The notes: generated from the sequence alone by a model not told the origin. A stretch of DNA of 62,814 nucleotides from Candidatus Hermodarchaeota archaeon (GCA_048885865.1 JBHLLF010000010.1:1-62814), one strand, 5' to 3'. Counted from the first letter of the stretch, positions 26,957-29,156 are shown. Numbers and translations: made by a program.

Positions 26957-28063
26957 GTGTCGGTGAATCCTTTGCCAAAGGGTGACGAGCTCCTCATCGT
27001 GGAGAACCTAAGAGCATACTATCCCTCCTCCAAAGGACTTGTCAGAGCTGTAGACGATGTTTCACTCGAAATCCGAGAAGGAGAGGCAGTAGGTCTCCTT
27101 GGAGAGAGCGGATGTGGGAAGAGCTCGCTAGCCCTCGCAATTATGGGGCTTTTTGAACGAGTGGCTCGTTTCCAAGCAGGAGCATCAAGCGATCCCACTC
27201 TACTGAAACAGTTCAAGGCAGGAAACAGATCCCTTGCGGAGGACCGACCAGGTATCCAAGGGAAGGTGATGTTCAGAGGAAAGGATCTGACATCAATGAA
27301 GGAGGAGGACCTGGTCGAGATTCGAGGAAAGGAGATCTCACTTATTCCTCAAGGTCTCACTCATGCACTCAACCCACAGCACAGCATCGGTCATCAGACT
27401 GCAGAACCCATAGACATTCACGAAGAAGATGTACGCCTGATTGACATGAAGCGGCGAGTGCTTGAATACCTCGGCATGGTCCAGCTTGCAGACGCAGGTA
27501 TTCGATATGTGCTCGATCCAGGAAGTTTCTCTGGAGGCGAGAGCCAAAGGGTTTTGATTGCAATGTCACTCATATCAGGCCCATACCTTGTGATTGCAGA
27601 CGAGCCGACGTCTGCACTTGATGTAACTATCCAGCGCCAAATTATGGACCTGTTGAGAATGGTGAAGGAAGATTTCGATGTGTCCACTCTTCTCATCAGC
27701 CATGACGCTGGAGTTATCGCTGAGCTATCTGACCGAGTTGCAGTGATGTACGCGGGAAAGATTCAGGAATATGGTGATGCCGTTCAGATGTTTCATCATC
27801 CTAGCCATCCATATACCATGGGGCTCATGGCCTCTTTCCCCACCATTGCAATGATGCAGATGAAGGCCGGCAGAAAAAGACCTCGGCTAAGGGGTATAAG
27901 AGGAAGCCCTCCCGACCTCACAGACCTTCCGTCTGGGTGCCCATTTCACCCAAGATGCGACTACTGTATTGAAACCTGCAAAACGGAAGTTCCAGAGTAT
28001 AGAGAAGTTGAACCTAGGCACTATGTCAGATGTCATAGATGGGGTGAGATTGAGAAAGAATGA
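26957..28063 (+). CDS. Orphan OppD/DppD-like ABC ATPase
   Basis: GESGCGKS, FSGGESQR, IADEPTSALD, ISHD, C-terminal Cys cluster. Confidence 0.88.
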   Translation: MSVNPLPKGDELLIVENLRAYYPSSKGLVRAVDDVSLEIREGEAVGLLGESGCGKSSLALAIMGLFERVARFQAGASSDPTLLKQFKAGNRSLAEDRPGIQGKVMFRGKDLTSMKEEDLVEIRGKEISLIPQGLTHALNPQHSIGHQTAEPIDIHEEDVRLIDMKRRVLEYLGMVQLADAGIRYVLDPGSFSGGESQRVLIAMSLISGPYLVIADEPTSALDVTIQRQIMDLLRMVKEDFDVSTLLISHDAGVIAELSDRVAVMYAGKIQEYGDAVQMFHHPSHPYTMGLMASFPTIAMMQMKAGRKRPRLRGIRGSPPDLTDLPSGCPFHPRCDYCIETCKTEVPEYREVEPRHYVRCHRWGEIEKE

Positions 28064-28064
28064 A

Positions 28065-28181
28065 GTGTGAGCGCGCATCGGCGCCCACGAGTGATATCCT
28101 CCACCAAGCCTTTGACGCAGGCTTGACTCGGTTCACGCATCTTGTCCAGTTTCCGTCCTCCCGGCTTTGGCTCAAGACGCG
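28065..28181 (-). ncRNA. Candidate structured ncRNA of unknown family
   Basis: GC-rich, three stems whose G-U pairs work only on the minus strand, with a TATATAT box about 20 nt upstream. Confidence 0.5.
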
Positions 28182-28198
28182 ACAATCCTCTCTGAAGC

Positions 28199-28205
28199 AT
28201 ATATA
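28199..28205 (-). promoter_or_regulatory. Archaeal TATA box for the candidate ncRNA
   Basis: Minus strand reads GAAGGCC-TATATAT-GC. Confidence 0.45.
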
Positions 28206-28268
28206 GGCCTTCCCTCGAAAATAACCGCCTATTTTTCCGAAGCACCAAAACGCGCCAAACTGAGATTC

Positions 28269-29156
28269 CTACTCATAGTTGAGTTGCAGTTCCATCTCCA
28301 TGAGGGTTCGGATGGTTTCGAAGCCTGCTTCGATGAAGGGCTGTTTCTCCAGGAGGTCGCCATCTACTTCGGTTCGAATTTCCTTCACACCATCTAGGTG
28401 TAATCGAGCAGCAAGGTGAGAAATGAGACTGGAGTCAGGCACCTCGATTAAAGCTGCTCCTGCCTTCAATGGAGTGAGGTCAATCCAGCCCATTTGTCTA
28501 TTAGCCTCGGACCTATATGCAACAGCCAGCGTGGTTTCATAATCCCGAGAAAGCAAGGTGAATCGTGGCTCCCACTTGTAAGCAGCTTCGTCTCTCAATT
28601 CGTGTAGATCAAGAGGTCTCGAGAAAAGCCCGCCGAAGAGATCCATGAGTCGCTGAGCTGGTCCCTTGCTCTCCCACTCTCTCACGCGACTTATCAGGGT
28701 TTCATCAATCGACAACTCAGAATCAATCTCGAGCTTCAGACTGACTAAGACTCTACGAGCTTCAAAGGTGTATTCACTAAGGACATCCGGTACCTTGATA
28801 GCTGATAGAGGTGTCCAAGCTGCAATTCGTTTGGCTCGGATATCACGAGCCCAGTCCATGACAAATTCAATAATACACTGTAGACCCTCAGTCTTTCCAG
28901 ATATAATGCTGATATCAGACATGAATGCAGATTGAGAGTCATCAGACCCAATGTAACGAGCAACAGCAGTGGCAATACCATCCTCAAGACCTAGAAGAGT
29001 TCGTTCAGGATTGACGACTCCTTGCTTGATGAGGGCTTTAAGCTCATGAGGCATGAGTGGATGAAACTCAGGGATATTCCCTTTGCCTTCATTATACACT
29101 CTTAACCAATCATCAATCCTTTCATCAGTGAGCTGAGCAATAGAGGCCTTAGTCAT
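28269..29156 (-). CDS. Tandem GNAT-like fold hypothetical protein
   Basis: Two repeats ending in YTFEARR and FIEAGFETIRT, GNAT-like strand order; weak. Confidence 0.55.
   Translation of the reverse strand: MTKASIAQLTDERIDDWLRVYNEGKGNIPEFHPLMPHELKALIKQGVVNPERTLLGLEDGIATAVARYIGSDDSQSAFMSDISIISGKTEGLQCIIEFVMDWARDIRAKRIAAWTPLSAIKVPDVLSEYTFEARRVLVSLKLEIDSELSIDETLISRVREWESKGPAQRLMDLFGGLFSRPLDLHELRDEAAYKWEPRFTLLSRDYETTLAVAYRSEANRQMGWIDLTPLKAGAALIEVPDSSLISHLAARLHLDGVKEIRTEVDGDLLEKQPFIEAGFETIRTLMEMELQLNYE

Follow-up and report, generated by a model that had tools for sequence, protein, structure and literature searches.

The 62,814-nucleotide (nt) stretch of DNA analysed here (the window; JBHLLF010000010.1:1-62814 of assembly GCA_048885865.1, from Candidatus Hermodarchaeota archaeon) carries, between two convergent genes, a minus-strand element that we name RNA-1. 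RNA-1 is a new, previously undescribed family of intergenic archaeal small RNA (sRNA), single-copy and specific to the Thorarchaeota, and its conservation and predicted transcription signals indicate that it is very probably a real, independently transcribed sRNA gene. An invariant element within it, GCCGGGAGGA, is the exact complement of the apical sequence GUC[CUCCC]GGC (loop in brackets) of a second predicted small RNA, RNA-2, encoded on another contig next to a gene for a Regnase-like ribonuclease. As read from the aligned sequences, this complementarity of element and loop is conserved; the link between the two RNAs is new. We propose, with even weight for and against, that RNA-1 acts in trans, its invariant element pairing with the apical loop of RNA-2 and the closing pairs. 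A preliminary description of the region had suggested an independent non-coding RNA gene, read from the minus strand behind a TATA box of its own, and the promoter, strand and non-coding nature that it envisaged hold across 57-60 homologues.

A Thorarchaeota-specific family of intergenic RNAs

RNA-1 lies in a 205-nt spacer (28064-28268) between convergent open reading frames (ORFs). A DNA search located the spacer in 10 of the genus's 16 genomes, and in a seven-genome alignment (A1) pairwise identity amounts to 93% in the RNA-1 segment but only to 82-83% in the ends of the adjoining coding sequences. Two covariance models, R1 built from the genus sequences and R2 from 37 diverse sequences, match the locus at 28053-28190 and 28061-28178, respectively. 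R1 finds exactly one match per genome in 44 of the 86 genomes of the family; R2 finds one copy in 64 of them, spread over 13 of 16 genera and including 17 of the 23 genomes of high quality. Outside the family, R2 gave no credible match in 125 genomes sampled from 26 other Asgard families: the sole hit (G107, 21 bits) comes without a terminal hairpin and lies in coding-like sequence. Scanning the exact pattern of the 3' module over 185,579 species, one genome each, returned 24 places. Sixteen are in metagenome-assembled genomes titled Candidatus Thorarchaeota, Promethearchaeota or uncultured archaeon, and all of these are full-length R2 matches; the remaining eight are bacterial, share the hairpin only and represent chance matches. 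The scan thus identifies the family as Thorarchaeota and RNA-1 as restricted to it. No match to RNA-1 exists in Rfam release 15 (window at the gathering threshold, region at E <= 10, ten loci of other genera at E <= 5), so that the novelty anticipated in the preliminary description survived the check that it had named, and no Thorarchaeota sRNA was present in Rfam or in the literature searched.

Several observations bear on the coding potential of the spacer. An open frame of 71 amino acids (aa) spans 28033..28248 and survives only in the four closest genomes (91-93% DNA identity), while three relatives carry a 25-nt or 20-nt insertion inside it that shifts the frame. In the other ~50 homologues the longest sense ORFs are unrelated, and several of the RNAs do not contain any AUG. 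Since the ORF is not conserved and the indels are not multiples of three, we consider RNA-1 to be non-coding; conservation of this very frame had been named beforehand as the argument for a coding sequence, and its narrow distribution contradicts that reading.

The predicted gene appears to possess both its own promoter and its own terminator. A pattern scan placed a TATA-like element 33-49 nt (median 40) 5' of the invariant motif in 51 of 57 homologues, the exceptions being two homologues in which a nearer secondary site was picked and four with weaker variants, and the TATA box is conserved in A1; its promoter function is deduced from these regularities. At the other end, a terminal hairpin followed by a U-rich tail forms an uninterrupted helix of 8-9 base pairs (bp) in all 60 sequences, with the 9-bp family form GUG(G/A)G(C/U)GCC-loop-GGCGC(U/C)CAC. 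Its loops vary freely while the stem is conserved in sequence, and the few variable pairs (pair 4, GU30/GC16/AU14; pair 5, GC57/AU2/GU1; pair 6, CG52/UG8; and, in the 37-sequence alignment A4, the ninth pair, CG27/AU2/UA1) include one GC-to-AU double change. These variants are compatible with pairing on the minus strand only, giving A-C mismatches on the plus strand, and for this hairpin they bear out the earlier argument, drawn from G-U pairs, that the folding strand is also the promoter strand. The hairpin was found by a terminator scan of the minus strand and occurs once in the genome.

RNA-2 and its complementarity to RNA-1

Because the invariant element is seed-like, its complements were listed genome-wide. 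In the whole genome the only exact 11-mer complement (GUCCUCCCGGC) outside the RNA-1 locus lies at C15:37831, inside RNA-2. Exact 11-mer complements number one against ~1.7 expected; degenerate sites number 11 and are mostly coding, without any pattern. RNA-2 occupies a spacer, conserved across the family, between a CitMHS transporter gene and an NYN ribonuclease gene; a TATA-like CTAATAG lies ~22 nt upstream and a U-rich tail on its 3' side. Neither gathering nor permissive thresholds gave the locus an Rfam match, and a tRNA identity was rejected. A covariance model (R3) detects single copies of RNA-2 in 61 of the 86 genomes of the family, from 13 of 16 genera, but no copy in the 125 genomes outside the family. 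The fold consists of three stacked helices with the invariant CGUC[CUCCC]GGCG on top, the five loop bases being unpaired. Across 60 sequences, 93.3% of the cells are paired and 11 of 18 pairs show double-sided changes, a level of covariation reached by 0 of 500 shuffles, and slid controls pair in 39-62% of cells. Judged by this covariation, RNA-2 exists as a conserved, structured RNA on the minus strand of its contig.

Both RNAs were detected in 50 genomes, RNA-1 only in 14, RNA-2 only in 11 and neither in 11. Pairing was counted in a fixed register over 45 genomes with both RNAs. Pairing with RNA-2 is seen in 98-100% of them at RNA-1 positions -1 to +6 (G C Y G G G A G), in 87-89% at +7 and +8 and in 71% at +9; outside the core, pairing in this register is not universal. 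The variation seen in the core, C or U opposite G at two places, is neutral for pairing. A conserved, accessible element (its motif 98-100% conserved) is matched by a conserved complementary partner, with pairing in 87-100% of these genomes. In several genera, the complementarity between RNA-1 and RNA-2 reaches 30-40 nt. These extended matches are lineage-specific: in G055, for example, AGAACGAGAC-GGA occurs in RNA-1 and in the antisense of RNA-2. Within the genus of the present genome, one compensatory exchange is seen, RNA-1 ACUGGACA occurring with RNA-2 UGUCCAGU in six genomes and ACAGGACA with UGUCCUGU in three. When cognate duplexes, bulges allowed, were compared with duplexes formed with shuffled RNA-2, z-scores were -6.5 in G055, -4.4 in G094 and G101, -4.1 in G011, -3.0 in G024, -2.5 in G061, -1.8 in G000 and -1.6 in G023.

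A number of results weigh against a functional pairing of the two RNAs. In the largest genus (g5) cognate duplexes are not better than shuffled ones (z = -1.3 in G086 and -0.3 in G073) and complementarity is confined to the 10-nt core, and six genomes have an A-C mismatch at +7. The flanks in fixed register, examined in an ungapped co-variation test, gave no cognate advantage (0.405 vs 0.427), and at genus level cognate partners are only weakly favoured (in 7 of 9 genera, the mean difference being -2.5 kcal/mol). No RNA-2 was detected in g4, g6 or g25, three genera that have RNA-1, and no RNA-1 in g24, g26 or g27, three that have RNA-2. The body of RNA-1 is not reducible to one family-wide secondary structure. 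The complementarity could also be a relic of an inverted duplication, each hairpin being kept for reasons of its own, or it could reflect independent mimicry of Shine-Dalgarno (SD) and anti-Shine-Dalgarno sequences.

A diverged RNA-2 was sought in g4, g6 and g25 with a 13-mer pattern; the exact matches in g6 lie in an apparently coding stretch, are not RNA-2-like and were rejected. These matches, GUCCUCCCGGCGG at L190:1502-1514 and L191:1502-1514 (G021 and G091), fall within conserved coding-like sequence and could be an mRNA site for RNA-1 or a chance occurrence.

Architecture of the RNA-1 locus

The coordinates of RNA-1, its parts and its surroundings are collected in Table 1. The TATATAT box and the three minus-strand stems all lie where the preliminary description had placed them, and folding of the minus strand with ViennaRNA recovers the three stems (-49.7 kcal/mol; z = -2.25, 3 of 200 shuffles being equally good), against z = -0.98 for the plus strand of the region. 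The G+C content of RNA-1 (59%) exceeds that of the flanks (47-50%) and of the genome (46%), in line with the GC-richness noticed earlier. The 5' end is estimated at 28178 +/- 3, ~10 nt before the motif, because of the usual archaeal spacing between TATA box and start, close to the 28180 first suggested; the predicted 3' end falls within the U-rich run behind the last hairpin.

Table 1. Position of RNA-1, its predicted parts, its neighbours and the partner candidate RNA-2 (window coordinates unless a contig or locus is given)
Feature	Position	Strand	Remarks
Predicted RNA-1 transcript	28055..28178	-	~120 nt; both ends estimated
Putative archaeal-type promoter	28199..28216	-	purine-rich stretch resembling a B recognition element (BRE), then TATA box TATATAT (28205-28199)
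GTTTGGCGCG + T-run box	28247..28260	-	just 3' of the stop of the upstream 295-aa gene; invariant in A1
5' hairpin P1	28136..28181	-	CGCGUCUUG/CAAGAUGCG plus inner CC/GG and CCG/CGG pairs; presents the invariant motif; minimum free energy fold
Stem 1	CGCGUCUUG 28181-28173 with CAAGAUGCG 28144-28136	-	encloses GCCGGGAGGA (28165-28156)
Invariant element GCCGGGAGGA	28156..28165	-	family consensus GC[C/U]GGGAG[G/A]A; Shine-Dalgarno-like
Stem 2, inner helix (middle hairpin)	CAAGCCU 28125-28119 with AGGCUUG 28111-28105 (28105..28125)	-	within the lineage-variable central domain
3' module GGCUUGGUGGAGGAUAUCACUC	28089..28110	-	consensus GACUUGG-N-AGGAAA-pyrimidine tract; aligned block in A4/A5
Stem 3 (terminal hairpin)	GUGGGCGC 28088-28081, loop CGAUGC, GCGCUCAC 28074-28067	-	U-rich tail after; terminator-like 3' end of RNA-1
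Orphan OppD-like ABC ATPase gene, 368 aa	26957..28063	+	Pfam ABC_tran + oligo_HPY; context, not a part of RNA-1
Upstream, co-oriented 295-aa gene	28269..29156	-	no Pfam family; context
RNA-2, predicted hairpin RNA of ~65 nt	C15:37797-37863 (L114:1398-1464)	-	invariant CUCCC apical loop
Zinc-finger + Zc3h12a-like (Regnase-like) NYN ribonuclease gene	L114:1480/1556-2031	+	PF11977, 52 bits; head-to-head with RNA-2

At the 5' side, RNAalifold retained the helices GUCUUG/CAAGA(U), CC/GG and CCG/CGG across 11 genus sequences. A 5' hairpin enclosing the motif is found in many genera with stems that differ (GUCUUG/CAAGAC, GUCCUC/GGGGC, GUGUC/GGCAC, GCUC/GAGC, UCGAC/GUCGA), and in 40 of 57 sequences pairing between the flanks of the motif surpasses that of shuffled flanks. 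Within the motif, the bases G, C and GGGAG are conserved at 98-100% (57 sequences), and GGAGGA has a mean unpaired probability of 0.5-0.75 compared with 0.43 for the RNA-1 body. The central domain is lineage-variable, as judged by the 25-nt and 20-nt insertions that lie immediately 5' of the middle hairpin (G014/G001/G008) and by the total length of RNA-1, which ranges from ~103 to 209 nt across the family. T-loop-like UUCGAAUC motifs occur in this domain in some homologues (L033, ~1160-1175; L082, ~1680-1695). The 3' module is mostly unpaired in partition-function folds. In this genus, the part of it at 28089-28104 (-), GGAGGAUAUCAC, agrees in 8 of 10 positions with GGAGGUGAUC, the full SD complement to the 3' end of 16S rRNA, and is a second SD-like site in RNA-1; other genera carry AGGAAAAC there. 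Stem 3 ends 3 nt from the stop codon (28063-28061) of the convergent plus-strand gene.

Beyond the terminal hairpin, the only helix common to all RNA-1 sequences, the remaining helices are genus-specific, and further structural models were dropped. A single consensus fold was abandoned: RNAalifold on 60 sequences keeps only the terminal hairpin, and the genus folds differ. Long-range pairing of GGGAGG with the pyrimidine tract that precedes the terminator is 74-79% compatible in fixed register, but just 4 of 57 sequences have this tract as the best partner of GGGAGG; a local hairpin between AGGAAA and the pyrimidine tract has no thermodynamic support (mean z = -0.14).

RNA-1 was also compared with the familiar archaeal RNAs. 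A tRNA search of the window returned none, as the earlier statement that the region is not a tRNA would have it, and identity with tRNA, signal recognition particle (SRP) RNA or RNase P RNA was rejected, RNase P RNA being encoded elsewhere in the genome and SRP RNA elsewhere in five relatives. The archaeal SRP RNA model of Rfam has no match in G000 (87% complete), yet matches all five relatives tested; the G000 gene is probably on an unassembled piece. The family consensus (A4/A5) has neither the C (RUGAUGA) nor the D (CUGA) box of a C/D box guide.

Genomic context

The gene order is conserved: a carbamoyltransferase gene, the 295-aa gene in some genera, RNA-1, and the convergent orphan ABC gene. 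The 295-aa gene stands between the carbamoyltransferase gene and RNA-1 in five genera (among them g1, g3, g4 and g7). It is absent from the largest genus, g5, where RNA-1 follows the carbamoyltransferase gene directly and has its own TATA box. In the present genome the GTTTGGCGCG + T-run box, with TTGGCGC(C/G) boxes at the equivalent place in other genera, probably marks the end of the transcript of the 295-aa gene and would separate that gene from RNA-1. A language-model look-alike search placed the 295-aa protein near GNAT acetyltransferase clusters (score 0.97, 181 shared features), which we regard as a lead only. In g5 (L022, L025, L026, L032 and others) a near-perfect palindrome, CAGAATGCATTCTG, lies between the carbamoyltransferase stop and the RNA-1 promoter, ~60-80 nt upstream of the TATA box; this could be where a regulator binds or where the upstream transcript ends.

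On the other side, the ABC gene is syntenic in most genera and has been lost in four species of this genus (G011, G007, G012 and G005), in whose genomes no orthologue was found elsewhere (best match 37-43% identical). All four keep the RNA-1 promoter, motif, 5' hairpin and terminal hairpin. At these loci (L010, L019, L020 and L021, from G012, G005, G007 and G011, respectively) the hairpin is followed directly by a remnant of the last ABC codons, GAGAAAGAAGAT..., and, 46-50 nt downstream, by a DUF362 gene. The retention of RNA-1 next to changing neighbours argues against a purely cis role, whether as a terminator, a 3' untranslated region (UTR) or an antisense of the ABC gene. It had been remarked that the element has no downstream minus-strand gene to lead, and the next gene is indeed convergent in most genera.

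Alternative explanations

RNA-1 might function as a stand-alone sRNA without RNA-2 as partner, its SD-like element binding the 3' end of 16S rRNA, as a ribosome decoy, or pyrimidine-rich mRNA sites; the match to RNA-2 would then be a by-product of SD/anti-SD mimicry in both RNAs. GGGAGG can pair with CCUCCU at the 3' end of 16S rRNA, the element is for the most part unpaired, and in g5 the complementarity to RNA-2 stops at the core. We nevertheless regard this as a minority possibility, because the complementarity to RNA-2 covers 10-11 nt, four to five bases beyond the SD core, whereas 16S offers only 6 nt, because the matches extend to 30-40 nt in several genera, and because other complementary sites in the genome are not enriched. 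It is also unlikely that RNA-1 is mainly a scaffold or sponge for a protein that would recognize GGGAGGA, AGGAAA and the invariant stem. The terminal stem is conserved in sequence beyond what pairing demands, which is unusual for a plain terminator, and two GGA-containing elements are exposed; however, no candidate protein was found, a CsrA-type sponge was rejected since the genome encodes no CsrA homologue, the neighbouring genes change between genera, and the exact complement in RNA-2 would be left unexplained.

The position of RNA-1 invites cis explanations, in which it would serve the upstream gene as 3' UTR or terminator, act as a bidirectional terminator or regulate the OppD-like gene as a short antisense RNA: hairpin and U-tract stand 3 nt from the ABC stop at a constant spacing, and the RNA tail overlaps the last codons of that gene. 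Such a role is improbable given the TATA box at a fixed distance, the ~100 nt of conserved sequence 5' of the hairpin, the persistence of RNA-1 in the four species without the ABC gene and its location after two different upstream genes. A riboswitch-like sensor, whose terminator would set read-through into the ABC gene (as antisense) or the DUF362 gene, could account for conserved unpaired nucleotides and variable peripheral helices followed by a terminator-like hairpin, and in G011 and G007 the DUF362 gene is co-directional and starts 46-50 nt downstream. This is quite improbable: a co-oriented DUF362 gene is present in only four species of one genus, the next gene being convergent in most genera, the terminator stem keeps its sequence unchanged and does not covary with an anti-terminator, no Rfam riboswitch matches, and no single aptamer fold was recovered. 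The H/ACA-like guide put forward in the preliminary description, or any other modification guide, is a most improbable identity for RNA-1. The RNA is small and rich in hairpins, and in this genome its last stem runs out into an ACA, as had been pointed out; it is no free box, however, since the last two stem bases are reused in it, and it is neither conserved nor single-stranded, the bases after the stem being ACU, ACC, CCC, GCC, GCA or UCC across A4/A5. The terminal hairpin has no internal pocket, and no C/D or H/ACA model of Rfam scores. Finally, that the spacer encodes a small protein (the 71-aa frame or a shorter one) is hardly credible, the frame being open here but confined to four close genomes and shifted by the 25-nt and 20-nt indels.

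A possible sRNA/anti-sRNA circuit

Our preferred reading is that RNA-1 pairs with RNA-2 in trans, and the following scheme may be suggested. Transcription of RNA-1 would start ~10 nt upstream of the mostly unpaired purine element GC(C/U)GGGAG(G/A)A, which in most genera would lie in or beside a 5' hairpin and be followed by a variable body, the 3' module, the sequence-invariant GC hairpin and a U-rich tail. The element would dock onto the CUCCC loop of RNA-2 and its closing pairs to form a duplex of 10-11 bp, which in several genera might spread to 30-40 bp. The 16S rRNA of the genome ends in CCUCCU, so the RNA-2 loop is anti-SD-like and the RNA-1 element resembles a strong SD sequence, a likeness that suggests a regulator and its decoy. 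In the simplest functional reading, RNA-2 would mask ribosome-binding sites and RNA-1 would be its decoy or anti-sRNA, or the roles would be reversed. More specifically, and only tentatively, RNA-2 could repress SD-bearing mRNAs or mark them for cleavage and RNA-1, through a perfect SD-like decoy and lineage-specific extended complementarity, could titrate RNA-2, the two forming a dedicated Thorarchaeota sRNA/anti-sRNA circuit. Transcription, physical pairing and any effect on translation or on the nuclease are, at this stage, what we infer from sequence.

Small RNAs controlled by a decoy or sponge are known from bacteria, for example GcvB with SroC or AgvB, and ChiX with the chb decoy. As in these pairs, RNA-1 appears to be a spacer gene with its own promoter whose product carries a short accessible invariant element, then a variable body, and ends in a terminator hairpin and a U tail, and it faces an unlinked second small RNA with the exact complement in a putative functional loop. 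It differs from them by its archaeal BRE/TATA promoter, by the absence of sequence or structural homology and by having no Hfq/ProQ context, and its pairing is a predicted one. Antisense pairs in which an initial loop contact grows into a long duplex, such as CopA/CopT or RNAI/RNAII of ColE1, provide another parallel, again without homology: an apical loop, G+C-rich and 5 nt long, meets a complement that is exposed, and the complementarity extends to 30-40 nt in some genera. However, CopA/CopT and RNAI/RNAII are cis-encoded on opposite strands of one plasmid locus, whereas RNA-1 and RNA-2 are chromosomal and lie on different contigs, and the extended complementarity between them is not universal. 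Among archaea, intergenic sRNAs are known from Methanosarcina and Haloferax. RNA-1 resembles these in size, promoter type, intergenic location and lineage-restricted conservation, but it has no similarity to them, and Rfam release 15 gives no match. With the H/ACA guide sRNAs it shares a small, hairpin-built archaeal format; these have a conserved ACA box and a pseudouridylation pocket, unlike RNA-1, in which, in addition, no K-turn and no model match were found.

The analysis leaves two covariance models, ~60 homologues for each RNA and a concrete pairing hypothesis, which is testable with in vitro transcripts and existing sediment metatranscriptomes and needs no cultured organism. Asgard archaea are the closest prokaryotic relatives of eukaryotes, and their regulatory RNAs are almost undescribed; the literature searched has no sRNA-sponge pair from them, nor is one known to have been described elsewhere. 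If the proposal is correct, RNA-1 and RNA-2 would be the first such pair described in Asgard archaea and would extend sRNA-decoy regulation to the archaea. A eukaryote-type RNase family could then be tied to small-RNA control, and the head-to-head arrangement of RNA-2 and the NYN ribonuclease gene would suggest a substrate or a guide for an archaeal representative of a family of nucleases known chiefly for mRNA decay in eukaryotes.

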